From: a virus | Direction: 5' to 3' (one strand) | IMG/VR virus record: IMGVR_UViG_3300021181_000006 | Location: 64,001 to 128,000 of that record | Length of the DNA stretch: 64,000 nucleotides | In this document: positions 9,822 to 63,292 of the stretch, one piece after another | How positions within the stretch are numbered: position 1 is the stretch's first letter | Layout: every line of letters begins with the position of its first letter | Notes under the pieces: model-generated | Databases searched by the model: none | Told to the model about the DNA's origin: nothing | What the model saw: the letters and a program-made list of their open reading frames with translations, nothing else | Position numbers and translations under genes: made by a program

Positions 9822-10844
9822 ATGCCAACGAGTAGAGAGCGACTCAGCTATTTATGTAATAAGTATAATACTGCATGGTCTATTGATTTTCATACACATT
9901 TAAACGCACATCTACCATACTGTTTTTTCTGTAAACAACCTTATGATGCTGTCGAAATGGCATTAAATCTTTCCCCACAATGTGATTGTCCTCAGATCCA
10001 TGAGGCTATTGCAGAAGTTACGGAGATGACATATGGATCTCACTGAACGTCATGCACGATATCATGCAATTCGAAAAAGATATTATCCAAATAGTATTGT
10101 AGCTATATTCGATTTATTAAATAGGGAATTTAAGGAGACACAATGCTGTCCATTCTGTGAAAAAGAATCTCATAGTATCTATAAAGACTTAAATATTCCT
10201 CTGTATTGTGACTGTAAAAAGTATAGAGCATTATGTAGTGATGTAGCATTTTTTAAGGATCCATTCCATGCAGTGCCCCAAATGTGATCAGGAACTGCCT
10301 GAAGAAGATATCATGAAAGCGAATCTTGGATTAGACTGTAGTAGCTGTAATAGGATGAGAGTAACTCATATCATGGCGCGTCTTATGTCGGGAGCTGATA
10401 TGGTGTTTCCATCAAAATTATTTGACCGTGAATGTGATAAACCTTCATGATTACCTGCCCTAAATGCGGATGGGATCAAGTGCCTGATGAGGAACAGCTC
10501 CATATAGATTTAGGTTTAGACTGTAGTACATGTTTTATTCATAAGTTTATAAGCCATACCATGCGTGAAAAAACCTGTATTGAGCAAATATTCCCTAGCC
10601 TACGAGTAGATCCATGACTACGGTTGAAGAACTCTATGCCATCCAGAAAAAATACTGGAATCATGATATACAATTTGTCTATGACATAGTCGTTTTGGAT
10701 GGAGATACGAATGGGCAATGTCCATTATGTAACCTCTATCAAGATCCACTATTACAAGATTTATCTATACCATTTAGTTGTGATTGTGATAAGTTTCAAG
10801 AACTAGAAAAAGATCTTGCTATAATTAAATCATTTTATCCATGA
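9822..10844 (+). other. Tandem array of five small Cys-rich paralogous ORFs (9822, 10033, 10268, 10447..10617, 10614)
   Basis: Each has CxxC, then a [DN]L[GNS][IL]-like segment, then CxC or CxxC; overlapping start/stop codons. Confidence 0.75.
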
Positions 10845-12229
10845 ATACTCTCTATCCCTATCAAGAAACCACCGTCCAGCAACTCATGCAGTGGCAGTCC
10901 AGTGGACTCATAGCTGACTGCGGAACTGGTAAATGTGCCATGCTCTTAAACTTGTTCCTGCGGAAGAAGTTGAAGAAACTACTTATTATTTGTCCTCGAT
11001 CTGTCATGGAGTCCGCATGGGGTGACGATATACCAAAGTTCGCACCACATCTGACTTTTCAGATGGTATGGCATGCGAATATGGCGAAACGTAAGCTCTT
11101 GTTAGCTCAACCAGCAGATATATATATTATAAATTACCAAGCTGTTGGTAAATGCTTTAATGAACTCGTAGCTAAGCAATTCGATATGTGCATTCTCGAT
11201 GAATCTACTTTTATTAAGAATCCCACGTCGCATCGCTGCAAAGATGTATTAAAACTCCGAAAGTATATACCTTCACGGCATATCGCCACCGGAACTCCAG
11301 GACATGAGCCGTTGCATTACTGGAGTCAGTGGTCATTTATCCATGATACACCGTTCTTAGGGTGTAGATCATGGTATGACTTCCGTAAAAAGTTTTATTA
11401 TGAGATCCCTTTACCGACTGGCATATCATTATGGAAGTTTAATGCTAATTATACACATATGCTTAATGATGCTTTGTATACCAATAGCATCCGTCTTTTC
11501 AAAGCAGAGTGTCAAAAATACCTACCTGCGCGTAACTTTATCAGACGGTACATCGATCTTCCACCCAGTGCGAGATCTATCTATAAGCAAATGGAAAAAG
11601 AGTCCGTTGCTGATATTCCTGGTAACGATGATAAACTGGCTGCCTTCTTCGAAACGACCCGTCGAGGCAAACTTCGCCAAATGGCAAACGGATATGTCAT
11701 ACGAGATGACAGGGGGTATGCTAGGACCGTACATAATATACACACAAGTAAACTCGAAGAATGTCGTGATATCATTGATAACGTTTTAGAGCCAGAAGAA
11801 TCTGTGATCATCTGGTCGAACTTTGTTGAGGAGATACGCCAGTTAGAAAAAGAACTCGGTTATCCATCGATCTGTGGTGGTACGAAGAATGCTAATCAGT
11901 TAATCGCTGATTTCAAAGCAGGAAAGCTAAAAGGTATCATTGCACATCCAGCTTCTGTAGCACATGGAATCACCTGGACAACCTGTCATAACTCTATATA
12001 TTTCGGGCTACCAGAGGATACCGAGTTATTTTGCCAATCTCTTGACAGAACGCACCGTAACGGTCAGATCTATCCTTGTAACTATTTTCTTATACTCGCT
12101 AGAAAAACTATAGACGAAGACATATGGAAGGATCATGAACGTAAGAAGATACGAGAGCTCACTATCAGCTCAGACTCTACGTTTAAGAAACTTATGTTGC
12201 AACGTCTTATCACCCTGAACATGATTTAG
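10841..12229 (+). CDS. SNF2-family helicase
   Basis: DCGTGKC, ILDESTFIKN, TGTP, HPASVAHGIT, QSLDRTHRNGQ. Confidence 0.9.
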   Translation: MNTLYPYQETTVQQLMQWQSSGLIADCGTGKCAMLLNLFLRKKLKKLLIICPRSVMESAWGDDIPKFAPHLTFQMVWHANMAKRKLLLAQPADIYIINYQAVGKCFNELVAKQFDMCILDESTFIKNPTSHRCKDVLKLRKYIPSRHIATGTPGHEPLHYWSQWSFIHDTPFLGCRSWYDFRKKFYYEIPLPTGISLWKFNANYTHMLNDALYTNSIRLFKAECQKYLPARNFIRRYIDLPPSARSIYKQMEKESVADIPGNDDKLAAFFETTRRGKLRQMANGYVIRDDRGYARTVHNIHTSKLEECRDIIDNVLEPEESVIIWSNFVEEIRQLEKELGYPSICGGTKNANQLIADFKAGKLKGIIAHPASVAHGITWTTCHNSIYFGLPEDTELFCQSLDRTHRNGQIYPCNYFLILARKTIDEDIWKDHERKKIRELTISSDSTFKKLMLQRLITLNMI

Positions 12230-12236
12230 GTATAAT

Positions 12237-15625: not shown

Positions 15626-15628
15626 TAC

Positions 15629-17415: not shown

Positions 17416-17418
17416 TGC

Positions 17419-19848
17419 ATGAATCGGAGGATATCTATGCAAAATGAACATTTGACATTATTTGAAGTTTTACATGAAGTACTAGGATGGGATGATGATG
17501 AGTCATGGGGTAACGTGAATATACCTCGTCGCGGTCCTTCTGATCTCAGGCCAACTGATATGAGTGGTCTATTAATTTCATCCACCAATAAAATGGTCAG
17601 TCCATCTACTATTACCATGGCTGAGTTCATGGAACTGCCATATGGATTTACTATTTGGTTAGGTAAGAATAAAGATTATTATAATATTGTTCCATTTGAG
17701 ATGGAACATAAACATGTGACATTCCATGCAGAAGAACTCATGGTGTATTACTCATGTGGTCATGAAGCGTGTATAAAAATGATGCCCATGATCATTGATA
17801 TTAAACAGAGGTTTCTCGCTAAGCTCATCTATGCGCCCATCAAGAATAATACTGGTAAAAAGCCACTTACTATGGTAAAAGCTAAGAATGGAACATAATG
17901 AATTCTTAACTGGGCCTTATACATGGATTCAGCTCTTCACGAAAGAAGAGATTAAAGCGATATTCGACCAAGCATGGGAGTATCGGCTGAAATCGATGTT
18001 AGCTGATGTTAAGGAGTTACAAGATATTAAGTATTATAATACGATTGATACACCACCTAAAGATGGCGTATCCATACGCTTTAAACAGACCAGCTCACGT
18101 CGTATAGACTGGTTCTTTGTTGTTGGCAAAGAAGAAATACCAGTTGGAGAGGGATTATTCTTAAATTATGCAAATATCACCGAGCCAGATTGAGCGGTTA
18201 GCTAAATACTTTGAAAACAAGTATGATAAGTGGGTGCGAGATTCACAGTTAAAGTTTCAGATGAATCTGAATACCGATGAAATACATCTCTTGAAGACCA
18301 GCTGGATGCATTGTCGTCATGAATATGGATCTACCATGCGTATCTATGTCACGGATATCTGTGATCAACATAAAGATGCTCGTCTCGCCTCAGATAGTCG
18401 CTCAGTAGTAGATACTGTCTATATGAGGATCGATGATATGATGACACATAGTAAATGGAAAGTATTTGCTATCGTATTCAATCACGAACTTCACGGACTT
18501 GAGAAAACGAGTAAAAGTACCCATATCTCATACCTCTACGGAGAATAAATGCGCTGTCCTCAATGCGAGTTCTATATCAATTCCTGTTTAGGACTTTGCG
18601 ATGCACGGTGCTTAATTGGCAATGATGATGTAGACTCAGAACAGTTTAAATCACTACTCACGAGTAGTGTCAATAATTTACCTGCTATTAATGTGTTTCT
18701 TCAACGTAAAGCTTCGACTATGATCGAGTATCTCTATAATCACGAAGATGCGAACATGAAGATGATGGCCGTTGCTGTCTATTATGCCAAGTTGAGTGAT
18801 CATAGGAAGAAATACATCATGTCATTAGATGAGAAACATCCTGCAAGGATTCTTCTTGTCCAAATGGACGCTGGACGACGTCCTAATATTAAGGAGATCA
18901 TTATCCATGCTACCAGAGGAGTATGATCGTATTAAACAAATTCTTGAGGACGTACATCATGAGTATGCCCTCAAGAATATATTAGGGTTACCCACAGAAT
19001 CAGTTCCATTTGCATTAGAGTGGATGGATGATAATAAAATACAGTTTATTATTAAGAACTCTGGTATCGCATCAGGTGAGTTCACTCTCATGATTAAGAG
19101 AATTTATCGTAGCAATCATACCGTTGGGCATTTTGTCGCTTCCTATAAGAAGCTCGAAAATATGGTCAATCCGAGTTCATTACGATCTATCGGTAAAATA
19201 ATGAAGAGGTTATTTCATTGAGCCAAGAAGCTGTAGAAATATTCATACGATTTATTATTGATGGATGTAAACATGAACTTCAAATGTATTTATCTATGGA
19301 TATAGGTAATAGTGCATGGTATACATTTAAGGATGGAACTGCTCTCTATATGCTCTGGGATGGACGTTTTAATCTGATCTTAGTCACAGCCACGGATCTT
19401 GGAGTAGCCTATGAGGCTATAGCATTAGATATCGCGGATATGCCATCATCAACAGATATTATGATTTTATCACGTATTCTGATACAGCGAGGCACCTATG
19501 CCAAAGAAGTGTCCTGATAAGCATTTAGAGACTCATAATAGGATTAAAAATACTATTATGAGTCTTATCGATCAAAAGAAATTCCTACATGACTTAGGTA
19601 TTACATACCTAGGATTTCCAGTATTTGATCGGGATACACATCTTAAAGTTGGTGATATGGATCTATTAGAACATGCAGATACTACTAGTCATCCACCGTT
19701 ATTACTATATAGTCTGTATTATAAACAAGATAAAGATATGTATTGTAACAAGCATTTTGCGAGCCGTTTCAGGCTCGAAGAGATGCTGCAAGGTGATACT
19801 ATATTACGCATCAGAACATACTTGCGGAAGAATAAACTGGTCATATAA
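17419..19848 (+). other. Cluster of about seven small hypothetical ORFs
   Basis: Contiguous, translationally coupled ORFs of 99-159 aa with no recognised motifs. Confidence 0.6.
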
Positions 19849-33377: not shown

Positions 33378-33455
33378 CAGTCCGTAGCTCAGCTTAGTTA
33401 GAGCACTTGGTTTGGAACCAAGGGGTCAAAAGTGCGAATCTTTTCGGACTGACCA
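33378..33455 (+). tRNA. tRNA-Pro(TGG)
   Basis: cttgg-ttTGGaa-ccaag; CCA end; T loop TGCGAAT. Confidence 0.9.
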
Positions 33456-34889: not shown

Positions 34890-35479
34890 ATTATGATAAT
34901 CGATCATTCAGAAGCGCATGGTATTTTTGCTCCTCTTACTGAGGAGGAAACCATGAGTATTGCATTAAAAATGACTATGAATATTAAATTAACAAATCGT
35001 GAATCATACCACCAGTATGGTAGATATGATACTCCTGATTTTATATTTATACACATACCAGGACCAGCACTTTGTAATGCGAGTGCTATAGCTAAGGTTC
35101 TTATCGATGACTCAGGATGAAGAAGACCATATCTTTGCAGCTATACATCTAAAACTAGAGATGGGTATAGCATTAAGTACTGATGAGATCGTGACTCAAT
35201 TCTGTTCCGTCTATTCCGATAACGGTGAACCTCAACCACTTCAGAATTACCTTTATGTCCAAATACAAGACATTAATCGCAAAAAGCGTGGAAGAACATT
35301 CCTCACCCATGATGATGGCAGCGTCACGTGCTTCTCGTCGCCTCAAAGTTGAGATGGGTATACCGCTCACATCGGATGAATATGTTGAATATGTTCAAGA
35401 TCTCAGAAAAAATAATATGTTAACTATTAATAATATTCTGGATGCCATCTAGTATATAAACCTATTTTAGGTTAAAATT

Positions 35480-36058
35480 ATGCCAATCATCGTACCAGTT
35501 ACTCCACGCCTAAAAGCATTGGCCGTGAAGCTAGCTCATATCCGTAATGGTCCAAAAGTAGCGGCTGGACTAAGAAATGGATTTTCCTCGCACTGTTATG
35601 GAGCGCTAGGAGAACTGGTATTTAGTGAGGAATTTGGATGCGATATAGACTGGAAATCATATGGTGGACTAGATGGAGATGGTGGTCATCCTGATTGCCA
35701 TCATAACGGTATTCATAAGTCATTTGAGATTAAGTTTTCTACTCATTTAACTAGTCCTGATCTTAAATTTGATCATGTAAATGAGTTCATCGCAGATTAT
35801 GCTGTTTTATTGTCATTAGGCGATATACGAGCAGACAAAGTATATATTATTGGCTATATAGATCGTTTATCATTTTTAAGTAAAACAAATGGTATTAGGA
35901 CACAGCAAAATTATGGTAATAGGCCACCACGAGAAGTAGTTAAATATGGTAAATTGTTTGATATACAAGATATATTAAATATGATCGGATCACAATGGAT
36001 ATTGAGCTGGAAAAGAAAGATACACCTGCAGCGTTTGATAGTACAGGGAATTCTTTAG
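35480..36058 (+). CDS. Putative PD-(D/E)XK restriction-like endonuclease
   Basis: GALGE...HPD...FEIK pattern. Confidence 0.45.
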   Translation: MPIIVPVTPRLKALAVKLAHIRNGPKVAAGLRNGFSSHCYGALGELVFSEEFGCDIDWKSYGGLDGDGGHPDCHHNGIHKSFEIKFSTHLTSPDLKFDHVNEFIADYAVLLSLGDIRADKVYIIGYIDRLSFLSKTNGIRTQQNYGNRPPREVVKYGKLFDIQDILNMIGSQWILSWKRKIHLQRLIVQGIL

Positions 36059-36490
36059 ATGACTATGCATATGGCAGTACTTTTGATCGTGTCGTACATG
36101 ATCTCGCTAAATGCCAAGAATATGAACGAGCTAAACCACTCAAGCACGATCTCGGAATATGGACTATCTATGATGAAATGTGGTTAACCATATATCGTAA
36201 TCGTCAATTAGAGGCCATGGCACACTATAGTCTCTATTCCTTAGCTCAAGAACATGCGTGTTGTGATCCATGACACCAGAAGAAAAACAATTACGTATAG
36301 ATCTTGGGCTTTGGACAGTATGGGATGCTTCCGAGGATAAGGTTACACAAGATATCAATCGTGAGATAGATAAACTATTTTTACATGAACTGGGGACGAT
36401 GATTTATGATCAATCTCTACGAGAGCGAAAAACAGCTCCGCAAAGAACTCGGCCTGTACGGAATAAAAGACATCATAGAGGAAATACTCA

Positions 36491-36898
36491 ATGAGCAAGC
36501 AAGTTATCGTTATGCGCAAGGATCTCAACATGCGCAAAGGCAAGCTTGTGGCCCAAGGGTCACACGCAACCATGAAGGATTTACTATCCAAATTTCAATC
36601 CCTAGACCAATCGATCATATCGAGATTAAACTTCTTATTTAGACCCCGTAGTATCTTCAGCGAAGATGAAAAGAAATACTACTTTGGTACCTTTAAAAAG
36701 ATTTGTGTCTATGTGCAGTCTGAGCAGCAGCTCGATGCTGTACATGAATTGGCTCTTAAGAAGGGACTCGTTAGCCATTTGATCATCGATAGTGGCCTCA
36801 CTGAGTTTAAGAATGTAGCTACAAAGACCTGTTGCTGTATTGGGCCAGATGATGAAGATTTAATCGATTTCATTACTGGTGATCTACCATTGCTATGA
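36491..36898 (+). CDS. Peptidyl-tRNA hydrolase, Pth2 family
   Basis: KQVIVMRKDLNMRKGKLVAQGSHA, KKIC, IDSGLTE, CIGP, ITGDLPLL. Confidence 0.93.
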   Translation: MSKQVIVMRKDLNMRKGKLVAQGSHATMKDLLSKFQSLDQSIISRLNFLFRPRSIFSEDEKKYYFGTFKKICVYVQSEQQLDAVHELALKKGLVSHLIIDSGLTEFKNVATKTCCCIGPDDEDLIDFITGDLPLL

Positions 36899-38577
36899 TA
36901 GTACCTGAACACGATAAAACTGGCTTCATATCTTATGTAGCTGAAGGCATTGATGAAGCGCTCTTTCGCAAAGAAATGGGATTGCCGCTCTACATGCAGG
37001 ACGTTGACATTATGAAGCTGGCTGAGGTCTATAAAGTTCGTGTCAATCGATATCGTTTATTACAAGGAAAACCACTCTTATGAGAATGTTCGAAGAACTC
37101 AACTGGTCACCAGAAGAGATAGAAATGATTCTCCATAGAGGTGAACTGAAGGCTGATCTCGGTTTAGAGTTATCTCAGATCGAAGCAGGTATGATGAACT
37201 GGAGACATCGCGTGTACTTAGAACAGTTACGTGAAGCTGATAGACAGGCTCCGAAGCATTATGATTGACGAGATCTATGTAAAACAGCTGATGAATATAC
37301 CATTATCATACAATGAAAAAAAAGAGTTATTTGTATATGAGAAGATGCTCCCGCTCAGGCGATATGATCGGCGATATGATCCATTAGGATTCCTGGATGC
37401 AAATCAGGTATCCTATTATGGGTGGCTCTTTGATATGTATAGGAACGAAGCATGATAGATCGTATTGAGTTGAAGAGAATGCTTCGGGTACGGCTCGATG
37501 ATGAAGAAGCTTCATTTATTATGAATCAATCGAAGAATATCCTCGGATGGATTAACCAATATAATATGGGCAGCCACATGATAGAAGGCGAAGAATGGGC
37601 AATACATATGATATCACATGTATTTACAGAAAATCTCACATGTCATGTCAGCGCTCCTTGGTGGTATAGAGAAGTTAATAAGGTACTAGGTTATGATCGA
37701 ATCCATAAAACTTAAGAAACAGATGGGGATTAAACTCTCCTATGATGAAGCCCATTTTATACTACAAAAGTCTATCGATATACGTAAAGACCTGATTAGT
37801 AGATGCGGTAATGATCTAGTCCATAAAGAAAAAATTATGGGTATATATATTAATCATATGATGGATGTATTTCCAATGCGTGACGTAGGCCAAGCTCCTG
37901 TGACTCAGTGGATGTATAGAGTTCTAGATAGACTTGGTATATGAACTGTAAACGAAGTGATGGAAATAAGAATGGAAGAAAAACGTGTGGGACAAAATAT
38001 ATACGAAGAGTCTATTAGACTCAAACAAATCATGAATATACCACTGGAAGCTGATGAGGTACTCCATATGTGTTATCGTGGTCTCGGATCGAAGCCATTA
38101 ACATCAGAATCTAGGCGCTCCCTGATGAACAATGTGAAAAAGTATGGACATAAATACCATTAACATGAAACGTCAGTTACATATTGATCTTGATATCAAT
38201 GAAACCATTTGTCTTATGCAGTCTATCAACACTGATCCGCGCATCATAGCATTTTTAGAAAGAGCCCGTGACAAATACTCAAAAACAGAGCCTAGCGATC
38301 AAGAAGCTCATGAATATCCCAGTCCATCTCCTGGATATACTGGAAGCTGATGATACTATTGAGAAAATTATAGCAGAAGCAGATAGACATGGAATCGAAT
38401 GCCGAAGGCGTGTACTTACACCTACCATCCATACAGATGAAGGAGCATCTAGGCATTCCTCTCACTCTGGATGAATGGTCTTTATTAAGGCATAATTCGC
38501 TTGTAAAAGATCTCATCATCAAGTACGCTCCTGATGAGATCTTAAATATTGATGATATATATTGGGGGAATACGTAG

Positions 38578-38734: not shown

Positions 38735-38860
38735 TAGAAATGATTTATGCAGTTAATCACAAAACTTGCCTGGAGCCCAACGTCTATAACGTTGAGCGTG
38801 GCAGTTATCTTAGTCATTATCCTCATTAAGTTAGATCAAAGTAGATAAGACTAAACCCAC

Positions 38861-40365: not shown

Positions 40366-41527
40366 TTTTCGGTATAAGATCAGTACACCAAACCAAGGAA
40401 ACATCCCATGAGCGCTGATAATACCGTTGCTGTTTTTTCTACACCAGATGGCAAATCCTATGTCATCGAAGTACAGTGTATTGAGAGTCGGTTCTTACTC
40501 GAAACAGATCAGCTCGATCCTCTCTGGCATGTTGACATGCTGTCGAAGGCCGAGGTCTATACTTCTGAAGATGCGGCAATATGTGCTGCATTCGCACAAG
40601 CTGAGGATCACTATGTTGAGTACGGAGTATGTCGCGTGAAACTACCTCACACTCTCGCAGAATTCATCGAACAGATCGAACCAGTCTATCACAAGCTCCT
40701 GTTAGGAGTGATAGACATCAATGGAACCAAGACTAATACTGCTAAACGTAGGAAGTCGATCTACTTAGAAAACATTCTAAGAAGCTTGACAAGCCTTCAA
40801 GAGCAGTTATTATTGAAATCATGAAATGTATATCGTTCCATCAGACGTATCAAACCACATCAGGTAGTGCCTGAGGTTTCTATACTCTTTTGGTGAGTAC
40901 ATGAACCCTGGCCCGCAAAGCCAGGGTTTTCTTTTATATTTTTTATACACGTAAGGTTAAGGCCCGATACTGTCGGGAGATAGCGGCAACGAAGGTTGGG
41001 GTTGGCCGCATGGGGAATCGATGAAAACATCACATGATGAGTTTTATGTACAAATTATAACTGATAAGTACGCTGGGAATTTTGAACGGGAGATGTGCGC
41101 TTTCATTACTGGTCAGTATGGTGATTGTGGAGTTGGAGAAGAAGAGGCTCAGCTCGTACCGAGTCAGATACAGAGCTTATTTGAAGGAGCCATCGATCAT
41201 AAATCAGATGAAAGTGGGTGTGCAAGGCCATGTGAAGTAGACTACGGCGAACATAATGCATTTAAGATATTTTTCTTGAAAACCCCAACTCAACAGATGA
41301 TGGATATCATCTGTGAGCGTGCTGAAAGATTTTGTATGTCACGACAGAGCGCAGAACTTCGTGAAATTCTTGGTTTACCTAGTGTAAAAAGTTGTCCTAC
41401 TGTAATTAAGGCTATTACTATTTTCCATCAAAAAACTATCATTACAACGGTGATGGTGCTTGCCGAATCAGAATAATCAGTTAAATATACTACTTGAAAC
41501 GTATAGTATACCTCATAATATCATTAT

Positions 41528-43627: not shown

Positions 43628-44489
43628 TCTTATAAGGATAGCATGTCATCATTCATTAAAATCGGCTCATGTCGATATTTAGTTATTTTTCATTATCCAG
43701 CTATTAGTAACGATGTTGAGCCTACCTTCTCTGTCCCAGTCTATGACAGTCATTCAGAAAAATTAATCATAGATGCCGCTCAGGACCATTTCCGACATCA
43801 GAGACTCTTTAAAGTTAATCTTGATACCGAATCTCATTACCTCAATATGTCACATGTTGAGAGGATATCGACACAAACACAATATTGGGTTCCTGTTGAG
43901 CTTGATCCAAAATATGTGACTTTTCATCGTTTACGCTGGCAAGTTATTGGATCCTATAGATCTATCACCGAGTATCTGAAGCCTATCGAAGAAGAAGTCT
44001 TTAAATACAATGAACTTGGATTATCTCAATGACCAGTAAATATATCGTCGAAGGCATTCCATGTCTGACGCTCAGATACACATTAAATATTACTGAAAAA
44101 CAGGATAATATCGGCAGCGGACCATCAATAGCCATATCTCTGAGCGATAAAAAAGAAATCAAGGCAAAAGCTGATTGTATTATCGCTGCTATTGATACAG
44201 AACTAAAGATGGTTCAAATTATTGATGATCTTTGGCTTGATCCATTCTGTATTAAAATGATACGTATTACCGAAGAAATCTGGTTGCCGCAGGAACAGGT
44301 TTCCTATTGGGACTTTAACCGAGGTTATTGGTTTTCTAAGATGAGTCACAGTGTTAATGAGGATATTCTCGATGCAGAGTACACCAAATGGCAGTTATTA
44401 TCTGCTGAAAACGATAGCTCTGATAAAAAAATCGGTCTGATGGGAACAGACCAAGCTGCTGGTACACGTTTCGCAGGAACATTACGCGT

Positions 44490-45026
44490 ATGAAAATCTT
44501 ACTCGATATGGATGGAGTCCTTGCTGACTTCGAAAACAAAGTATATGATCTCTTTGGCCATCCAAGAGAAAAATTTGATGGTAATAATATGTGTGATATT
44601 GCTCAGTCCTGCGGTGTGAGCAATGAAGCATTCGATACGGCTATGGCAGTAGAAGGATTCTTTTTGAGTATCGAACCGTTGCCGTGGTGCTTCAATCTCG
44701 TAGAGATTTGCGAGAAGCGTGTTGGTCCAGAAAACGTAGCTATCCTGACCAAGCCTTTTAGTGGACAATGTGCTAAAGAGAAGGTCGAATGGGTAGCAAA
44801 GTATCTCCCAAGTTACGCGAAGCGATTACTGATTGGTAAGGCTAAGCATTTCTGTGCCTCACCTGAATCAATCCTGATTGATGATACCTGGAAGAATCTT
44901 GAATCATTCTTGGAACATGGCGGTCAAGCTATTCTTTTCCCAAACCTCTATAATATCCATAGGACCTATTTAACGGATCCTATAAAATTTGTAGAAAGAT
45001 CACTTGATACGCTTATGGCTGGATGA
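44490..45026 (+). CDS. 5'(3')-deoxyribonucleotidase, HAD/NT5C family
   Basis: LLDMDGVLADF, ILTKP, KV.W, LIDD..KN. Confidence 0.9.
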   Translation: MKILLDMDGVLADFENKVYDLFGHPREKFDGNNMCDIAQSCGVSNEAFDTAMAVEGFFLSIEPLPWCFNLVEICEKRVGPENVAILTKPFSGQCAKEKVEWVAKYLPSYAKRLLIGKAKHFCASPESILIDDTWKNLESFLEHGGQAILFPNLYNIHRTYLTDPIKFVERSLDTLMAG

Positions 45027-45357: not shown

Positions 45358-46006
45358 TGCTCATCCCTATGCCGTATTCTCTATGGCACCGGATATCGAT
45401 GAAGTGCGGATAGCCTTCGAAGCCGTATGCCTGCAGATTACTGACGCTGAATCAGCTCAGTATAATGCAGAGCATATGGGCTTCGATGGTTTTCCAACTA
45501 TCCCTGAGCTCAATGCATTTGATATCGATCAGGCTATTTTCTTTGCTAATCAAGAGCAGACGTTTATTGTTGGGTTCGGTAAATTCAAAGAAGATGACCT
45601 ACCAGAAGAGATACCAGATAGCCAGTGAGTATTACCGGTCAAGCTCAGAATAAAGTCTGGGCGCATGCACTCCTCAAACGAGGAGGATCTATTTGGATCG
45701 TTGGCGATATCCTCCGTGATATGGTCGATGAATGTCAAAGTTTCTTGTTGAAGAAAGAGATGAATATCGATCAGGTCACGCCGAGTGCTCATTTCTATTT
45801 TTTAGGTAATGATCACGGTGTGGTCTATATCATGGTACAAGATGCTGATAATATCATTATCTCTTATTCAGACTTTAGTGACAACGCAACCCTGGAGACA
45901 GAAATCTCAGTAAGTTTTACGCTACTAGAGAGATCTGCAGTGTGTGGTGAGATGTTGTTGAGGTCGCCAGAGGTAATAATAGGATCGATATCGGTAGGAT
46001 AGAATC

Positions 46007-50769: not shown

Positions 50770-52188
50770 ATGCCACCTAGAAAACCCATGGGTCTTGGCA
50801 CAATATATACACCTAAGAAAATATCATGGCAAACTATTCTACAACCATTGCTAGATGCACATGAAGCACGCCTTACTGATATAGAGAGAAATCTTGGTCT
50901 TGGTTATCCCTTTACGATAAAACACGAGCATAATGTGATTTTTATCTGTTATAGAGATAGGCTGCACGCTGTGAGGCCTGGACACTCTCCAGACCCAACT
51001 ACGTATTATAGTGAGTCTATTACCTCGTATACGTTGGTCACGGAACAAGGCTTAATGAATAAACATCATGAGTTTACATTACTACCATGGTAAATGGTGG
51101 ACCTATGCTCTATACCTATCAATGGATAGAAATCCATCGACCATTCTTAATGGCTCATATGGCACGTCTTACTGATATAGAAAGACAGCTCGATATTGGA
51201 TTTCCATTCAAGCTTATACATAAGCCATTCGGAAGAATGGAATATAGGCATGAACTCTATAAGAATTACTTTCATATTAAAGGGATTCAGAACTTTATAT
51301 CCTATCATGCTCATGGATCATTCTTATCTGAAGAAGATGGAGATATACTGGATAACATCCGTAAGCAATTTGTAGTCGAGCCATGTTAAATTGGCATGTC
51401 GTTTTTTCTAATACTCTCAGAGTACATGAAGATGGTCTCACTCCCATGGAGAAACAGCTCAATATTGGATACCCTATACTTATCTCTATGATGAACCCTA
51501 AGAACGGATTGCAATATAAGATGCATCTCTATAAGACCTATTTCATCGAAGATATTCGTCTTCACCAAAAGATTTTCTATACCGATAGCTGTCCTTGGGA
51601 CGGATGGGTGATATCCAGTATACGTGAAAGTATTAGGCTATTATGAAAATATTGAAAACAATAAGCTTTGGTGAGGCATTAGCGCCTATTATTAATCAAT
51701 ACCGTGATAAACTCACTGATATAGAGCGAGATCTCAATATTCTCTTTCCTATACGTCTAAAAAACGCCTTCATTTATGAAGATCGTATTACTATATTCTA
51801 TGGACCTCAGTCAGATACGGTGATGTTTCATCAAATCATTATGTATGACACTATGGAGGTTGAAGTACATGATGATGAACTTACATTCCAGCTGCGACAG
51901 AAAAGATCATAAATGGAAAATAGATTGACGTGGGGAGATCTCTTCCATGATGTCATGGAAGAGCGGCTATCGCGGGTGACAGAGATAGAACGGTGTATGA
52001 ATCTTACGTATCCTATTATAGTGAGGCTCCATCATCATATGAAAGTATATCTCTATAAAGATTATTTTACTTCACACTTTCCAGAAGATATTATCTCATA
52101 TCGAGTGTCGTATGCCATTATTCCTCAAATAGATAACGATGATCACTTTCTGGAAGAACTAAAAAAGACACTGACACTCATTACATAA
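50770..52188 (+). other. Five tandem paralogous small ORFs
   Basis: Shared W/F...L..H...LT.IER.L[GND][IL].[YF]P. Confidence 0.8.
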
Positions 52189-52703
52189 GCAACCCAGTCT
52201 CAGGTGGTTGAACATCCCAGGTTTGGGATACCTTTCGCGTTTAAACTGAAGCCTAAAGAACGTTAAAACAGAGACATGGCTTCGTAATTTCAGGAAACAC
52301 ATGGAATTCGCTTCTCATATGCTTACTGGTAGTATACAAACTACTGCATTATTATTTGTATGGCGTAGCTATCGTCAGCAACGGAATAAAGTATTAGATG
52401 GAGAGTTAAAGATCGATCTTGGTATTATTAAACCACCTCCTACGGAAGAGACCAAGCACGCAGATAAGACACTTGATGAAGAAATGTCTGATTATCTCGA
52501 CAGTACTCCTATCACAGACCGTATTGACTGGGAGCTACACTTATTCAGAAAAAAGTGGATGAAGCGTGAAAAACTCTTCGCGTTCACTATGTCATTGCTC
52601 TATATCGTTATTAACATCTTTTCTATTTCCTATACGATACATGAACATCAGCCTATACCGCATCATCCGGTAGTGACTCTTCATAAGAAATAATCTTTAA
52701 AAA

Positions 52704-55509: not shown

Positions 55510-56538
55510 ATGACCACACACCACGAATTTCCTTGTCAGTCTCCTATACGCCGTGTTCTTTTCATCTGCAAGAAGCGCACTACAGAATACGGCGAGCTTA
55601 AAAGCTCGGGATTGCTTAATTCAGCACGCATGACTGCTCAAGCATTAGCTCATCACGGATGTCATACCAGATTGGTTGATGTCTTCGATGGAAATAGTGT
55701 TGATCGTGAAGTCTATGCATTTAAACCTACGCATGTTATTATTGAAGCGTTCTGGCTCACGCCATCTAAGCTCGAAGAGCTTATTAAGCTGCATCCAACC
55801 GTGCAGTGGCAAGTACGTAATCACTCAAAAATTCCTTTTTTAGCAGGCGAAGGAATCGCCATCGACTGGTGTTATCAGTACGCACAGCTACCGCGTTACA
55901 CCTTGTCTTCAAACTCTATTGAAGCGATGACCAACTTTAATAACGTAGGTATTCCCTGTGTCTATGCTCCCAATATCTATGAAGCTCGTATCCAAACTCC
56001 TCCAAAGAGAGTGCATGGACCTGACTTGCATATTGGGTGTTTTGGGGCTATACGACTGCTTAAAAATCATTTACTCCAGGCAGTGGCAGCCATTATGGTG
56101 GCAAATCAAACTGGTAAAAATCTTCGGTTTCATATAAATATTGCTCGGCAAGAGATGCAGGGCAGAGAGCCATTAAAGAATTTAAGGGCTCTCTTTGCTC
56201 ATCAATCAAATCATATTCTTGTAGAACATGATTGGCTTGACCACGATCAGTTCCTGAAGCTGATTGCTACTATGGATATTGGCACTCAAGTTTCTTATAC
56301 AGAAACCTTCAACATCGTCTCAGCTGACTTCGTCTCTATGGGTATTCCCATCATTGTGTCAGACGACATCAACTGGATGCCAGACGCAGCGATTGCTGAC
56401 TGTAACTCAGCTGAGAGTATCTCGAATCATGTGATGCGAGAACTGTCCCGTGATAGAGATCGCATTCAACACGAAAATGTTATTAGCTTAAAGAAATACA
56501 ACGCAAAGGCCATACAGGCATGGATATCGGATCTGTAG
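55510..56538 (+). CDS. GT-B fold glycosyltransferase (GT4-like)
   Basis: IGCFGAIRLLKN...Q; SYTETFNIVSADFVSMGIPIIVS. Confidence 0.8.
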   Translation: MTTHHEFPCQSPIRRVLFICKKRTTEYGELKSSGLLNSARMTAQALAHHGCHTRLVDVFDGNSVDREVYAFKPTHVIIEAFWLTPSKLEELIKLHPTVQWQVRNHSKIPFLAGEGIAIDWCYQYAQLPRYTLSSNSIEAMTNFNNVGIPCVYAPNIYEARIQTPPKRVHGPDLHIGCFGAIRLLKNHLLQAVAAIMVANQTGKNLRFHINIARQEMQGREPLKNLRALFAHQSNHILVEHDWLDHDQFLKLIATMDIGTQVSYTETFNIVSADFVSMGIPIIVSDDINWMPDAAIADCNSAESISNHVMRELSRDRDRIQHENVISLKKYNAKAIQAWISDL

Positions 56539-56989
56539 ACATAGATAAGAAATATGTCACCAATAGATCATTGAGCGAACTGATTTTCGATAATCTTGAA
56601 CAGCGCACTAAGGATCAATGGAGCCTGAATCGTGATCTTGGATTACCCTATGAGGTACTCGTAGGTGATGGTATATTCTTTGGAATCAATGCCAATGGAT
56701 GGGTGTTAGGCGTGTCACATCCATGGGAATACAAAGGTTATTACGTGAATAATTGTCCATCAAAGAATGCGTTTATAACACAGCTTTCTGTGAGCAATGT
56801 TCGCTCTATCTATAGAAATTTATTCCCACAATTCCGGTAGAAGGTTAATGCCCTGGGAAGTGGAGCTTAAGAATCTGAAGGTTTCCAGTCCAGCCAGAAC
56901 GATAATTGATATAAGTATATATCTATATGCACTAGCAATGCATATATATCTATATGAAGGTCATCCCATCTTTCGCAGCTGGTGGTAGT

Positions 56990-57480
56990 GATGCTAACAT
57001 ATTTTGACGCTTATGCTTTACCTTTAAATATTCTGCCGAGAGATTCAGATGGGCGAGAACACTCGTAAAGAGTTGCACTCTTTCAGTATTGGTATATATA
57101 AAATCATGTATATACACGATCAAACTGATAGTAGCTTTTCATTGCTACACTCGTGTAGCAATGGTTTTCTAGAGTTAGTTTCTGGCTTGTCTCATACATC
57201 CAGAAGTCACTAGAATAACAATAGACATTAAATTCTATACCCGCAAGGGAGAGCCACGAGAACGTCGCATCGTGGTTAGTATGAGCGTGGCTCGGTTCAG
57301 TGGGGTCATGGTTTATCAAAGCTTTCCATACGGTTTAACTGAGATCGTATGGCGCAAACTTACCTTCCTGTCGGTGGTGAGCGATAGAGTCCCTTGGTGG
57401 TGATCCCATTAAGAATTCTCACAGTTGCAGGGTATATGGATGTCTAGGCTCCTTGGAGTTCCGACCACACACATATATCT
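56990..57480 (+). ncRNA. Candidate approx. 500-nt structured ncRNA
   Basis: No credible ORF; at least five perfect or near-perfect stems including a GCAA tetraloop. Confidence 0.5.
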
Positions 57481-58607
57481 GAGTGACCAGACAGGAATTT
57501 TTTCCCGCTGCTTTCCGTAGGCAGGCTCAACGGGTTGTGGGGAGTATCTCGGTGAGCGAGATACTCCCCAATACGGAGTTTTTTAGGTATAAAATAATGA
57601 GAACGATCACGCAGTTTGTTAATATCCTTTGGGATGAATTTTACGTTCCATATACTATGGGAATATCGAGTGTTACTATTTTTCCTCATTACGTGCATCA
57701 ACCATTGATGTGTGGGTTTGCATTCAATAACTCATTACTTCCTCATAAAAGTATAAAATCATATGTCACTCGTTGTGAGATTCGATTTGGACACAATGGG
57801 TGGGGATCTATCTGCTATGACTTTCAAACATTTATCCATAGTGTAGAAAATCACGAATACATCAACTCACACCTAGCACGGATGAGAGCCTATGTTAAAA
57901 AACACCATGCCGAGCTATGTTCCAACCAAGGAAAGGATAGCTAAAAATATACTCGATCAGTTATTCCGAGAGTTCGGAGTGCAGATTGTTATGCGCATTG
58001 CCTTTGAGTGTATGCTCAAACCAGGAGTGAGATTTTACTATGAAAGTTATCCATACGATGATCGTAACGAATTCTGTTATCGGTTAGACTTTCAACTGGA
58101 TGGTCGAGCTGGTATCGTAAAGCATCGATGGATGCCTATTGGCATGACGAAGAAAGCACTGCTGAAATCAATGGTCGGCTTTCTCAACACACGCCATGGC
58201 GATGAGTTCTTCATGGACATGCTCTCATTACCAGAGATATATACACAGTTGGATAAATATGGTTACAACTGGTTCACTATCACGGATCGGATACGTGATG
58301 AAAGACTTTAATGCTAGCGAAAAACGAGATATCCATACGATAAACACTATCGTTGATTCATTTTGTAATGAATATGCGATACAAATAAATATGAATATTC
58401 CGTGTGATCGGGAGATGATCGGCAATGTGATATTTGGTTATGATGGCCTCGTACTCTATTGCAGCAGCCCATCTGATATACGTCTCTGCAGCGCAGAGTA
58501 TAAAGAAGTATTTAAGACACAGATTTTTTTTATGAAAAAATATGAAACCATTAGACATATGATAAATATATACAGGATGCTGTACACACTCAACCTAGAA
58601 AGACCTT

Positions 58608-60101
58608 ATGACATCCGACGACCATCTGAAACAATGCATTGATGATTTAATCGAGGATATCAAGAATAATCCTAATGGATGGCAGATGATCAGCAATAAT
58701 ACCACCTTATATAATGTTCACGAAAGTATAACAATATCCTGGAACTCTCATTGGTTCAGAAAGTTCTATAATCAACGTATTGAGATTGAGGATACGCATC
58801 TGAACGCAACATCATATACCATACCAAAATCCATATTCATACCGATGTATGCAGCTATCCAGTCATGGAAAATACAGGAGGAAGATAAACAGCGTATAAG
58901 AAATATGAATATGTTAATAGATCGTACTGCGGGATTAAAAATCAAGTCTGAGATGAACATTACATGACGAGCATACGTACCACATCAGATGAACATATAA
59001 AACGATGCATTGAACAGATTATAGAGAATATAAATCATTTTCCAAATAACTGGAAACAAAAGGTAGATAGTGATGATGAACATCATCTGAAAACATTAGA
59101 TGATATGTTAGGCCTTCGTTGGTATCCACGTAAAGCAGGATGGTTTAATAAGAGTACCACAGAACGATGGAGACTCTCTTATAGAGATCATGATTTTAAT
59201 CATCATAGCTATGATCTGAAGAGTATCTATTGGAAGGATCTTGAAGCCATTATAAAGAAATGGATGGAAACACATGAAGACAGTGAACTGGTAAAACGTA
59301 TGGAACATCTCATAGAAACAACTGCAGCACTAAAAATTAAAGCAGAGATGAACATTACATGAAAAAATGCACTATGACCCCTGATGAACATATCATGCGA
59401 TGCGTAAACCAGATTATCGATAATCTGAATCAATTTCCAAAATACTGGGACATACGTATTGATAATGATAAAGAACATCACCTCAAGTCTAAAGATGGTA
59501 AAATGCGTTTGCACTGGTATCCATCTTGGTTCAGAAAATCAAAAACCTGTAAGTGGAGGCTATCCTATATAGGTCGTGGGATGGATGAGCACACGTATAT
59601 ACTAACGAAGAGGTTCTGGAAACCATTAGCGGATGCATCTAAGGCTTGGATGAAAAATCATGAGGATGAGTTCCTTATTGCACATATGGAAGAACTCATT
59701 GATCATACGGCAGGATTAAAAATAAAAGCAGAAATGAATATTACATGAAGCATGTCTGTGGTGTTGAGACGATCATGAATATAGCTAATAATATGAGATC
59801 ACATCCAGATCATTGGAAGTACAATGAGCGTGATGATGATATTACTGTATATAATAAAAATGAGCAGTTTACTATCAGGTATGAGAAGCATTGGTATGGA
59901 TATATCGATAAAAGATTAGAATTTAGAGATAATTCAGGCCAGTATAGGGTTATGCTCGGTAGAGTTGCATTTAAACCATTAATTTCTGCGATACGCTTTA
60001 TGCAGGATTGGCATGAGAATAAGCAGAGTCGTGATATAGCAGAAAGGGTGTTATTAGCTACTCGTGATCTCACGATCAAATCTGATATGAATATCACATG
60101 A
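58608..60101 (+). other. Four tandem paralogous ORFs all ending (K/T)IK(S/A)(E/D)MNIT-stop
   Basis: 58608, 58964, 59359 and 59745; ATGA-coupled; conserved C-terminus. Confidence 0.85.
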
Positions 60102-62590
60102 GAAAACTCCCTCAGATAGATAACTATACCTATCTTCTTCCTATTCGTGAGAAAACTCTCATGGAGTATCGTGATAAGCTCGCCATAGCTGTATTTGCTG
60201 ATAATATCATCGAGATCGAGATGGGTATAGATTTAGATTACTATATTAATAAGAAACTCTTGTTTTCTAAACGCGGCGATAAAGGTATGCTCAGCACTCC
60301 ACATGGAGGAATTGAGTTTAACTTTGATATCAACGAGTTTAAGAAAGCATTGATGATCTATTATGTATTCAGTAAAGATTATCCAGGATGCCGTATCAAA
60401 CGTCAAAGAACACGCAGGTTTCGCATCTTTCTACGAAAAATACGAAACCTATTCTTTGGGTATAAGAGGAATACTCACTAACAAGGATTCTTCTTATGCC
60501 AACGACGGATAGGATTCGTAAGTCTCTGCTCGCTGAAAAGCAGCCTCCTCGTGTCTATTATGAACCAACAAAAGAGAAGGCGAATCAAAAATCAACTCAG
60601 TTTTTTAAAAATGCCAAGAAGGTTCCTACGGTTGAAACAGCTGCAGAAGCGATGGCTATCTTACGTACAGGATCTTCGGTGATTCTCTGTAACCAAGATA
60701 TATACGATCTCTTCTCAGGTGAAGACCGTGAGCACCATTTGAACCGATGGGATTTATAATCTATACACGAAAGTAGGCTCGGCCTACTTTATTAGCTAGG
60801 ATATATGGATATCAAAGACATCGATACCTTAATCGATTATATTGTCGGTAAAGAAATACGTTTACTGATGAATCTTGAACAAAAAGCTACTGTTACTATT
60901 AAAGATAGTACCTATTCATTACTGGAAGATACGGGTAGATTTACACTCTATATGACGTGTAATAGTCGTACTCATTGTCTGTATAGCGGAGGTACATTCA
61001 ATCAGATGATTGATACGCTCAAAACAGAGTCATTCAGACAATCTATTATTACCAATACTAAGATCTATTCCAGAAAATGAGCACTATCTATGATCTCGTC
61101 CAAAATCATATGCAAATCCAGCACTATCTTGGGCTAAAAGTATCTCTCTATATTCAACTCGGGTGTGATTATTTTCTTATACGTAATGAAAGCGCAGATC
61201 TATTCGCGTTTATAAAAATTACGTATTCGATAAGAAAATATGAAGGCCATAAAATATTACTGTTGACCGGTAAATATGCATGGTATACCAGTCATCTCAA
61301 GAACATCGATCTCTATATCAAAGGTCATGCACCATGCAGTATTGTGCATCAAAACGATATGTGCTTAGATTTTGTACATCGTGTAATACCGAACATACAA
61401 AAGGTATCGCATCTCCACTCTGCTGTCCCATTTAATTTCTATGGATATCCATGTGAATCTCTATTTGTGGCAGTCCACGCCGATAGTGGATATACAGCTA
61501 TACATATGGTAGATATGACCAATGACATACCTGCAAAACCGTGATGTATTTGAGATGCATAAACATCTCAATTTACCATATAAAGTATATATTATCGACA
61601 ATTCTTCAGTACATAGCGTCGAAATACGCGGTGACTTATATGTACTGAGTGTCTATAGCCATGAAATCAACAAAACGGTAGATGGCCAGATTGAGATCAT
61701 CGTTCATCAAATATTTCATAGTAGTCATCATGAACTCGCTCAGTATTGCCATATTTTTATTGGCAGCCATGCTACTGATAATATACATGATATCTATACC
61801 TTCTTCGTGAGGAAACATATACCAGAAGCGGTCTGTATATGGCATGATTTTTACAAAAAGGACTGTAATCCTTCTAACTTCCAACATACGTCTAGAACGA
61901 GGTGTGTTCTCAACATACCAGGTTATCGTATGAATATACTAGTCATAGGGCATATAACATGAGCATTAAACGCGATATGAACATCCCATTGGTATGGGTC
62001 TGTGTTGAATGTGGCAAGAAAGCACGCGCTACATCGGAGCACGGACCCATGACATTTACCTCTACTTTCCATAATGGCATCTGTGATTGCTGTAGTAAGC
62101 CAAAAGCAGTATGCCCAGTACGTGATTTTGGATATCCAAGCTTCGATAAAGTTCAGGTATAATATCTATACATGAACGTAATCGATCTACCATCTCCTTT
62201 TACGAAAAAAGAAGATGATCTGTATACCTGCCTCGGTATAGAGCGGGAAAGATTTTTCCTAGTGTGGCCGTATGGATATCTGATATCACGAGCTACGAGT
62301 TTTGATCCGATCCTCCAGACTGATACGCTAGAATATACCATCACTCGTATTCTAGGAATTAGAGACTATAAGTCTTATTTCAACTTAGTGATGAATAGAG
62401 TTTTGGATAGCGAACAGAAACTCTTGTCAGAACAGTTCCTGCATCCAACGGAAAGATTCAGAGAGTTCATTGACAGTTCTGAATTTTATAATTATTGCAT
62501 AATATATCCACGTAAATCATACCTCGATGTCTACTCTGACGATATGAGCGATAAAGATGTAGGCATGACACTTAAAATAAGATTTCCAAC

Positions 62591-63292
62591 ATGAAAACCA
62601 TTCACGAAGTCAGTACGGAACTCCATATGGAGATCAGCGATCTTGGATCGTTGATCTCCAATGGTCGTATAGCTCGACCTACCAGAGCCAATAACCAATG
62701 GTTGTTCTCTGAAGACAATATTAAAGAAATCAGAAGCATCGCTCCAGATCTTCTTCCTTCCTATCAACGTTTATTCCGTCAGAAAGCCTTCTGGGCTCAT
62801 AAAGTGGATGGCGTGACCATCCATCCCACAGTGATTGCTCTGGCACGAGCAGCCTGTGAAAATAGTACTCTCTTTGAGAATAATAAAACTATTCTTGTCA
62901 GGGACTATCCAGACCAGTTCGTTGCTTACGCGAGAAGCGTGAATCCTGCTGACATCAGCGTCGAAGAGCGACGTGTCTTTAGGGCTATCCAGCTTGCCTG
63001 TGAAGGAGCTGTTGAATTTAATAACGCTTTAGGGCTTGTTCATGAAGATAAGCTCATTTCTACCCATCAACTCGCTGTACTCTGTGGCACGCATGATAGT
63101 ACCATCCGTAATTTGTGGAAAGAGCGTCGCGTAGCCCCTACTACCATGTCTCAATCCAATGCTCTGCTCTGGCGTGTTGACAACACACTTATTACTGCTA
63201 TAAAGCGATTCCTTGCACGCGAAGGAGATCTACCTCCCCAGCAATTTAGTGCACGGAAGGATATCGTTCATTTTCACATCGAATCAACCTGA
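62591..63292 (+). CDS. Putative DNA-binding protein with two HTH-like domains
   Basis: N-terminal MerR/excisionase-like HTH followed by WLFSE.NI; second ISTHQLAVLCGTHDSTIRN segment. Confidence 0.55.
   Translation: MKTIHEVSTELHMEISDLGSLISNGRIARPTRANNQWLFSEDNIKEIRSIAPDLLPSYQRLFRQKAFWAHKVDGVTIHPTVIALARAACENSTLFENNKTILVRDYPDQFVAYARSVNPADISVEERRVFRAIQLACEGAVEFNNALGLVHEDKLISTHQLAVLCGTHDSTIRNLWKERRVAPTTMSQSNALLWRVDNTLITAIKRFLAREGDLPPQQFSARKDIVHFHIEST

Follow-up and report, generated by a model that had tools for sequence, protein, structure and literature searches.

A seven-residue protein motif recurs, far above chance, in the small early proteins encoded on the plus strand of an uncultured 184-kb phage, where it is conserved and selected at the level of the protein. 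Tiny early ORFans number in the dozens in large phages, and for most of them origin and function are obscure; here one third of the small early proteins are tied together by a single short element, which provides a handle on the whole set. The best reading of this element, to which we would give an even chance of being correct, is a helix C-cap module that has been passed down and retained within a hyper-divergent, lineage-specific set of mini-proteins. What can be learned of the set is limited by the phage being uncultured and by the carrier genes, among those tested, being without relatives beyond this phage lineage.

The window analysed is a stretch of 64,000 nucleotides of this genome. Defined strictly as [LIVMFY][KREHNQ]..[LM][GN][ILV], the motif has 39 instances in the window, spread over 38 plus-strand ORFs (including real-looking ORFs omitted by the greedy caller), and 33 of the 39 instances also match the tighter pattern of the original prediction, in which a recurrent motif in small proteins had been proposed from the letters of the window; all of the peptides quoted there lie inside ORFs, with its positions marking their starts. 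Seven looser variants (the G/N site being occupied by D, S or R, or the spacing shifted) exist besides the strict set. Across the 141 greedy-called ORFs, 35 strict matches are found where 1000 within-protein shuffles give 4.9 +/- 2.2 (z = 13.8), the tighter pattern gives 28 matches vs 2.2 in shuffles (z = 18), and the reversed motif shows no enrichment in the same shuffle test. Natural controls lead to the same picture: small plus-strand proteins of the early region hold 2.98 matches per kaa (33 of 105 being carriers), compared with 0.32 per kaa in the remainder of the phage's own genome and, in seventeen loci from other phages (T4 bases 1-50,000 among them), an overall 0.21 per kaa that falls to 0.14 per kaa for the 418 proteins shorter than 200 aa. 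The original prediction had allowed for a frequency no higher than in controls; it is far above both shuffles and other-phage proteins, and the recurrence is real. Furthermore, an unbiased scan of exact tripeptides ranks MNI first (12 vs 1.16 expected, p = 4e-9) and also places LGL, NIP and MGI among the top five, so that the enrichment is no artefact of a pattern chosen post hoc. One further match, MRKDLNM in ORF 36491-36898, was dropped from the counts as the ordinary N-terminus, typical of its family, of a PTH2 peptidyl-tRNA hydrolase (Pfam PF01981 full-length, E = 2e-26, profile positions 2-115 of 115); the gene lies inside the coordinates of array A (see the table) and is not a member of it.

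Since the codons underneath the motif vary (Leu is written with five and Gly with four) and the enrichment is limited to the coding frame, the signal lies in the protein, as originally proposed. Specifically, a six-frame test of the window from 9 to 64 kb gives 33 matches in the coding frame, 7 in the three minus frames and, after removing dropped genes, about 5 true off-frame matches in the two other plus frames. A nucleic-acid signal (promoter, ribosome-binding site, internal start or recombination linker) could be suspected from the ATG that follows purine-rich codons in half of the instances, and from the C-terminal motif copies that overlap the start of the next gene. However, none of the Leu codons used here at position 5 is able to start translation, the enrichment stays within the coding frame, paralogs also keep residues that precede the motif, and shuffles, reversed motif and natural controls do not exceed background; a signal of this kind, or a chance or compositional artefact, is effectively refuted already and its probability is close to negligible.

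Most instances fall into five arrays of small genes, in which 15/17, 6/6, 12/16, 5/5 and 4/5 of the ORFs are carriers. The carrier genes lie on the plus strand, with tRNA and nucleotide-metabolism genes as neighbours.

Arrays and isolated instances of the motif, in positions of the window; all features lie on the plus strand.
Feature	Span	Content	Strict motifs	Loose motifs
Array D	9822..10844	five tandem zinc-knuckle mini-ORFs, starts 9822, 10033, 10268, 10447, 10614	9951-9971, 10313-10333, 10498-10518	10180-10197, 10749-10769
Array F	18168..19848	small ORFs 18168, 18549, 18829, 19498	18249-18269, 18576-18596, 18970-18990	19582-19602
Array A	34893..38577	17 ORFs, tRNA-Gly to tRNA-Ile interval; 15 carry the motif	34965-34985, 35149-35169, 35342-35362, 36139-36159, 36291-36311, 36436-36456, 36964-36984, 37146-37166, 37279-37299, 37711-37731, 38020-38040, 38298-38318, 38437-38457	37470-37490, 38177-38197
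Isolated	41021..41476	one ORF, motif close to C-terminus	41357-41377
Isolated	44029..44493	one ORF, motif close to N-terminus	44071-44091
Isolated	45625..46002	one ORF, predicted beta-rich sequence after motif	45748-45768
Array B	50770..52693	BLAST-detectable paralogs 50770, 51087, 51383, 51643, 51913, plus ORF 52301	50881-50901, 51446-51466, 51721-51741, 51985-52005, 52406-52426	51177-51197 (Asp at G/N site)
Array E	56520..62594	16 ORFs; strict motif in 11, loose variant in one	56625-56645, 58379-58399, 58941-58961, 59336-59356, 59722-59742, 59763-59783, 60075-60095, 60209-60229, 60856-60876, 61116-61136, 61555-61575, 61965-61985	62340-62360

The carriers had been called otherwise dissimilar, and this description stands: BLASTP among them links only four small families, Smith-Waterman comparison with the motif masked makes no further pair stand out, and hhalign comparison of the two paralog families with each of the other carriers never reaches a probability of 8%, leaving about 30 carriers that are independent by sequence. 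Those tested have no Pfam, PHROG or database relatives and are ORFans restricted to this phage lineage. Neither did the varied placement claimed for the motif need revision, as it starts anywhere from residue 7 to residue 125 and is found at N-terminal, internal and C-terminal positions of proteins without other detectable similarity. What the original prediction missed is the arrangement of the carriers in tandem arrays and the decay of flank similarity with gene distance (-0.23 below 1 kb, -0.46 at 1-3 kb and -0.81 beyond 3 kb, BLAST-level paralogs excluded), which was equalled in 0/200 permutations. Because the similarity around the motif decays in this way, the arrays must have expanded by duplication, and common descent explains much of the recurrence inside each of them. 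A sister strain (99.3% identical sequence) has a nonsense change in one paralog, as expected of a redundant, expanding family. No single homologous family or fold emerges from these comparisons, similarity outside the motif being found only between neighbours within arrays and not among all carriers. We infer common descent between arrays as well; one ancestor for all carriers is an assumption, given that homology between arrays is undetectable beyond the motif.

Within the motif, it is L/M, G/N and I/L that do not vary, unlike the Lys often found at position 2. All 39 strict instances have G or N at position 6, and most of the seven loose variants have D or S there, a restriction to residues that favour a left-handed turn and thus support for the helix-cap reading. 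Positions 5, 6 and 7 co-vary, as M-N-I vs L-G-L (odds ratio 7.8, p = 0.015), and position 4 is Asp/Glu in about 40% of instances. Position 2 is Lys in 20/39 (51%) and Arg, Glu, His, Asn or Gln in the other 19; long amphipathic side chains of either charge fit a packing role rather than a chemical one. The composition of position 2 also bears on the suggestion in the original prediction of an acceptor site or degron, here for a putative phage Ubl-E2-JAB-E1 cassette, to which the start of the motif, resembling a SUMO-type consensus, lends some colour (roughly 11 instances read hydrophobic-K-x-D/E). With Lys absent from 19/39 instances, and even Glu accepted as a substitute, with no counterpart of the invariant L/M-G/N-I/L in acceptor consensus sites, with the Lys located within a predicted helix, and with no Pfam UBA/CUE or other Ubl-binding signal at E <= 0.1, this suggestion is disfavoured and we consider it very unlikely.

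The original prediction had itself cautioned that a Gly/Asn-capped helix followed by a hydrophobic residue is a common structure, and according to the AlphaFold models this is precisely the structural identity of the motif. The model of ORF 37693 (pLDDT 85-89 over the first 30 residues) has helices at residues 2-10 and 17-38, joined by a loop (11-16) in which M-G-I-K-L-S lies, and that of ORF 50770, of low confidence (pLDDT 47), has a helix up to L, then G, then strands. DSSP assignments of both models have the helix stop at L/M or immediately ahead of it, one or two residues short of Gly, which places the motif at a modelled helix end with G/N as the turn. A profile of the array A block searched against the PDB has as its nearest matches a helix-loop junction that recurs in a designed helical repeat protein and the end of a helix in IDI1, neither of them significant.

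The element that follows the motif varies (helix, strand, zinc knuckle or free C-terminus). In array A the usual context is a helix, the motif, (P)L, S/T-x-D/E-E and a second helix, with a classic S/T-x-x-E helix N-cap downstream of the motif; in array D the motif is flanked by a CxxC knuckle and a CxC/CxxC knuckle, and the array F instance at 18576-18596 is likewise flanked by Cys knuckles. In the paralog alignment of array B the motif block is the best conserved, followed by G/x-Y/F-P and then beta strands, and four paralogs of array E (58608-60101) terminate as motif, Thr and stop codon, the motif again being their most conserved block, with synonymous codon changes. Given such differing downstream elements, one fold does not explain the motif.

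Under the helix C-cap reading, the motif would be the C-terminal cap, of Schellman or alpha-L type, of an amphipathic alpha-helix. The hydrophobic residue of position 1 and the L/M of position 5, one turn apart, would share the buried face; the L/M would close the helix, the G/N would adopt the left-handed turn conformation that ends it, and the I/L of position 7 would fold back on the helix, probably covered by the long K/R/E of position 2. These packing roles are proposed residue by residue from a sequence pattern (positions 1, 5 and 7 hydrophobic) that is compatible with position 7 packing back on the helix. Helix plus cap would then be the sole element retained in a large, phage-specific and very fast-diverging population of mini-proteins, its five arrays in the early and tRNA region being the product of tandem duplication, and the cap may persist because it fixes the first helix to the following element, nucleating the folding of proteins so tiny that they have little other core. 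Folding, and not partner binding, would thus be the selected property. Against a cap, it must be said that two residues from the C-terminus it has little structural work to do and is yet strongly conserved in that paralog family.

There is a tentative alternative, which we regard as possible and as less probable than the cap: helix end and turn might serve as a portable address, an epitope by which some 40 unrelated early mini-proteins on different scaffolds dock on one putative phage or host hub (a chaperone, protease adaptor, polymerase, clamp-type hub or phage Ubl component), effectors being gathered at one place. About 30 sequence-independent carriers, at least four structural contexts and positions reaching to the extreme C-terminus are what a docking element could produce, as are the conservation of the block, above all others and with synonymous changes in its codons, in the two paralog families with several members, the bias at exposed-type positions (Lys at position 2, Asp/Glu at position 4) and control proteomes at chance level; the M-N-I vs L-G-L covariation looks as if a single pocket were being fitted. 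However, most linear motifs sit in disordered linkers and this one sits in predicted ordered helix-turn structure, helix capping can account for every conserved position, and array clustering with decaying flank similarity shows descent behind much of the recurrence.

The ordered setting argues equally against cleavage by a phage protease before the I/L, for instance by the putative DUF2201 metallopeptidase (19873-21171) whose gene adjoins array F. Zinc endopeptidases typically favour a hydrophobic residue after the cut, but four C-terminal carriers would lose only two residues and the zinc ribbons of array D would be split, and we hold this explanation to be highly improbable.

If the motif is a folding nucleus, as the helix C-cap reading has it, it shows a phage making one minimal helix-cap module the starting point for many new mini-proteins, and it provides a natural setting in which to study how mini-proteins fold. 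If instead it serves docking, it would lead to a hub on which about 40 effectors converge; this would be a modular adaptor system, used in host takeover or counter-defence, of a kind that, to our knowledge, has not been described for phages.

Several known systems resemble the motif in part. The T4 capsid-targeting sequence and other shared phage tags also place one short peptide on many unrelated small proteins of a large phage. The T4 tag, however, is strictly N-terminal, and the prohead protease cuts it off the head-module proteins that bear it, whereas the motif starts at variable positions, is C-terminal in four paralogs, is found in early and tRNA-region genes and has no cleavage site after it; a tag of the T4 type was therefore rejected. 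A SUMO-type acceptor was likewise rejected on its Lys content (20/39, and about 11 with Lys plus D/E). UBA and CUE domains (h-x-x-[LM]-G-[FYI] after helix 1) differ in spacing by one residue and have no Pfam match here, and their three-helix bundle is unlike the ORF 37693 model, with its 22-residue second helix and no Foldseek match; indeed, Foldseek against PDB and BFVD gave no match at E <= 0.001. The canonical helix-turn-helix turn (h-x-x-x-h-G-h) has the same spacing of two hydrophobics, Gly and hydrophobic, but here the second helix begins two residues later, position 2 is K/R/E rather than Ala/Gly, and many carriers go on with strands or stop; as a DNA-binding domain it was rejected (no Pfam HTH at E <= 0.1, noise aside, and no Foldseek match). 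The helix end of the Nudix box (R-E-U-x-E-E-x-G-U) shares the ending in hydrophobic, x3, x, G, hydrophobic, and IDI1 holds a near-perfect copy of the array A block in a match that is not significant (E = 0.8); the carriers, however, are without the upstream G-x5-E-x7 and too small for the fold, and a Pfam search of them gave no Nudix domain. WXG100 and LXG proteins, families of type VII secretion substrates, are also small, mostly helical proteins with a short post-helix turn motif as nearly their sole similarity, but they have a motif of their own, one helical-hairpin fold and a secretion system, whereas the carriers have varied contexts and point to no export machinery, and no membership is claimed.

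The closest comparison is with the Schellman and alpha-L C-capping motifs with a hydrophobic staple, reportedly described by Aurora and Rose in the helix-capping literature. They likewise have Gly/Asn in left-handed position as the first residue beyond the helix, a hydrophobic residue after it and another one turn back, and often Pro and an S/T-x-x-E N-cap next. Generic caps, however, are not restricted to L/M before Gly and show no 20-fold enrichment in one proteome, and so cannot explain the near-obligatory L/M before G/N here or the chance-level motif in other phages and in the rest of this phage's own genome. Both AlphaFold models agree on the placement, and position 6 together with their DSSP assignments puts a predicted positive-phi residue right after the helix, as in a helix C-cap.

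Small plus-strand proteins of the window share a seven-residue motif (hydrophobic, [KRE] or similar, two variable positions, [LM], [GN] and [ILV]). With the loose expression [LIVMFY][KREHNQ]..[LM][GN][ILV], 35 matches are found in a greedily called set of ORFs against 4.9 +/- 2.2 in shuffled sequences, and the tighter pattern of the original prediction, hydrophobic-[KRE]-x-x-[LM]-[GN]-[IL]-x-(L), is enriched as well (28 vs 2.2); the positions quoted there are ORF starts, each with its peptide inside the ORF. Several plausible ORFs dropped by the greedy caller were restored for the final tally, which stands at 39 strict instances in 38 ORFs (hereafter carriers) and seven loose variants, the latter deviating from the expression. 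A further motif-like match (MNIPL) runs into the 3′ end of tRNA-Pro, is probably untranslated and was left out of the counts.

Natural proteins are a better control than shuffled ones. Matches per 1000 residues amount to 2.98 in the small plus-strand proteins of the region (33 carriers out of 105) and 0.32 in the rest of the phage genome. In 17 loci of other phages, among them the first 50 kb of T4, the figure is 0.21, and for the 418 proteins shorter than 200 aa in these loci it is 0.14; the predicted recurrence holds up against these phage proteomes. In an unbiased survey of every exact tripeptide MNI ranks first (12 vs 1.16 expected, p = 4e-9), with LGL, NIP and MGI also within the top five, and the enrichment is thus independent of a pattern drawn after looking. 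The reversed motif occurs at background level only. Taken together, the tripeptide scan, the reversed motif and the natural controls, with the T4 early region among them, rule out post hoc pattern bias. The carriers are neither unusually acidic nor unusually basic.

Conservation acts at the protein level, as originally proposed. Codons within the motif vary (five for Leu, all four for Gly), and enrichment is confined to the coding frame, which holds 33 matches; after removal of dropped genes, about 5 are left in the remaining two plus frames and 7 in the three minus frames. In four paralogs that end in the motif, Thr and a stop codon (the C-terminal family), the peptide is kept while third codon positions change. 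Neither TTG nor CTG ever encodes Leu at position 5, which therefore cannot be a start. Codon variety, non-initiator Leu codons and the six-frame test exclude a DNA or RNA signal, or internal starts, as the explanation.

Instead of being scattered, the carriers are clustered in five tandem arrays of small ORFs (see table), in which most ORFs are carriers; three isolated instances lie elsewhere. Flanks of ten residues on either side of the motif were scored after BLAST-level paralogs had been left out, and similarity per position falls from -0.23 for genes less than 1 kb apart to -0.46 at 1-3 kb and -0.81 beyond 3 kb, a decay reached in 0 of 200 permutations, which argues that the arrays grew through local duplication followed by fast divergence. 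Between arrays, flanks are only marginally more similar than those of random anchors and, on sequence comparison, the motif is the sole element shared.

Arrays and neighbouring features (positions in window coordinates)
Feature	Position	Strand	Remark
Array D	9.8-10.8 kb	+	carrier cluster
Array F	18.2-19.8 kb	+	carrier cluster
Array A	34.9-38.6 kb	+	carrier cluster
Array B	50.8-52.7 kb	+	carrier cluster
Array E	56.5-62.6 kb	+	carrier cluster
Knuckle mini-proteins	9822-10844, 18549-18926	+	56-125 aa
DUF2201 protein	19873-21171	+	putative metallopeptidase, VWA-like domain
tRNA genes (13)	32052-55306	+	interspersed with small ORFs
tRNA-Pro	33378-33455	+	
Excluded ORF	33407-33742		MNIPL match
Promoter-like site	34777-34804		TTGACA-16-CATGAT
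tRNA-Gly	34816-34889	+	
Overlapping ORFs	35107-35452, 36270-36898, 38144-38577	+	array A
PTH2 gene	36491-36898	+	peptidyl-tRNA hydrolase, inside array A
tRNA-Ile	38578-38654	+	
Hairpin	38847-38881		perfect, 16 bp
C-terminal family	58608-60101	+	four paralogs, array E
Interrupted paralog	59745-60101	+	nonsense change in sister strain
Missing in sister contig	64434-65072		~640 bp, just past window end
Unaligned in sister contig	68761-71575		~2.8 kb, beyond window end

The source phage is uncultured (a record of 184,466 bp, about 94% complete, of which the window covers bases 64,001-128,000) and no close DNA relative was found among deposited phages. On its plus strand, the window has tRNA genes and extended stretches of small ORFs, and also encodes early/middle functions: two helicases, an RNA ligase, both ribonucleotide reductase subunits, the PTH2 hydrolase, HNH nucleases and the DUF2201 protein, which is flanked by array F on one side and by a Ubl-E2-JAB-E1 cassette on the other. 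Array A exactly fills the gap between tRNA-Gly and tRNA-Ile; with the promoter-like site immediately 5′ of tRNA-Gly and the hairpin separating the array/tRNA block from converging minus-strand genes, it looks like a single transcription unit. Some of its neighbouring ORFs overlap by 80-150 nt in different frames (35107/35225, 36270/36406 and 38144/38268/38389), each with its own copy or loose variant of the motif, and about 150 nt are likewise common to ORF 36406 and the PTH2 gene. Genuine gene overlap, decay of duplicates and frameshifts in the assembly are all possible sources.

The carriers had been described as otherwise dissimilar. This is true beyond four small families, the only ones linked by BLASTP: no further pair stands out once the motif is masked, and when the two multi-member families are compared with all other carriers by hhalign, probabilities stay below 8%. 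It does not fully extend to neighbours within arrays, whose flanks are more alike than those of distant genes. No match was obtained for the 20 carriers searched against each of Pfam and PHROGs, nor for the array-A model with Foldseek against PDB and BFVD or in the ESM Atlas. In IMG/VR, no relatives were recovered with a 192-aa array-A ORF, two paralog alignments, a 326-aa neighbour or the terminase, and two other neighbour genes led only to unrelated phages, where the motif is at chance level. For the families tested, a set of 5.8 billion proteins returned self hits only, and full HMMER of the C-terminal family against 1.84 billion representatives returned itself and one 1567-aa protein (E = 1.5e-4) aligned outside the motif region; neither set holds relatives beyond this phage lineage. 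Nothing pertinent came up in word searches of the literature.

A 99.3%-identical sister contig (145 kb, JGI) has 1 substitution in 420 motif nucleotides, at a variable position, vs 52 in 7049 other carrier nucleotides, consistent with constraint on the motif in numbers too small for a test. One C-terminal paralog has a nonsense change at codon 59 there (loci L029/L030), and is called as two pieces of 58 and 49 aa; this motif-bearing paralog thus appears dispensable. The stretch missing from this contig and the unaligned one are indel or replacement polymorphisms between the strains.

Residue pattern, AlphaFold models and a profile of array A lead us to read the motif as what looks like a helix C-cap. 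Hydrophobic residues occupy positions 1, 5 and 7, and at position 2 there is a long residue that is polar or carries a charge of either sign; position 6 is exclusively G or N in strict copies and D or S in most of the seven loose ones, all of which favour a left-handed turn. MAFFT, unaided, lines up eleven array-A proteins on the motif, in a 17-residue block with an S/T-x-D/E-E helix N-cap at its end. Among PDB sequences, a profile of this block comes closest to the helix-loop junction that recurs in a designed helical repeat protein and to the end of a helix in isopentenyl-diphosphate isomerase, neither match being significant. In array A, ORF 37693 is modelled as helix 2-10, loop 11-16 (containing M-G-I-K-L-S) and helix 17-38 (pLDDT 74 overall, 85-89 over the first 30 residues); in the weak model of ORF 50770 from array B (pLDDT 47), the helix stops at L and two strands follow G. 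What comes after the motif differs, being a helix in array A, strands in array B and much of E, a zinc knuckle in array D and ORF 18549 (array F), and Thr plus stop in the C-terminal family. The knuckle proteins, with CxxC, the motif and then CxC/CxxC, resemble mini zinc ribbons whose knuckles are separated by a short helix. Protease cleavage at the motif is unlikely, because a cut would split such a ribbon or, elsewhere, remove just two residues.

Our preferred reading, at about even odds, is that the motif is a structural module kept through common descent. A short amphipathic helix, with the cap at its end, would nucleate the folding of very small proteins and be the sole part to outlast rapid divergence in a lineage-specific population of early mini-proteins expanding in tandem. 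A docking function, also suggested originally and not exclusive of a structural module, is possible but less likely; in its favour, and at odds with the structural reading, no block is better conserved than the motif even where only two residues separate it from the C-terminus, capping needs less restriction than is seen (L/M before the turn, Lys at 2, acidic at 4), and other proteomes use the cap no more than chance. Residues 5, 6 and 7 co-vary, M-N-I vs L-G-L (odds ratio 7.8, p = 0.015, families collapsed), which fits mutual packing and a common pocket alike. The further suggestion of a Ubl acceptor site is unlikely, since half of the motif copies have no Lys.

In form, judging from residues and models, the motif would be an ordinary Schellman or alpha-L cap, and its spacing is that of the HTH turn and the Nudix helix end. 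The carriers were found not to belong to the HTH, UBA/CUE or Nudix groups, nor the motif to SUMO sites or T4 capsid tags. Nearest in concept are WXG100-like families, whose members are united by a turn motif, and shared tags on phage accessory proteins. What is unusual is that in a single phage such a cap recurs in about 30 ORFans independent of each other in sequence, across four contexts and at 20 times the natural background.
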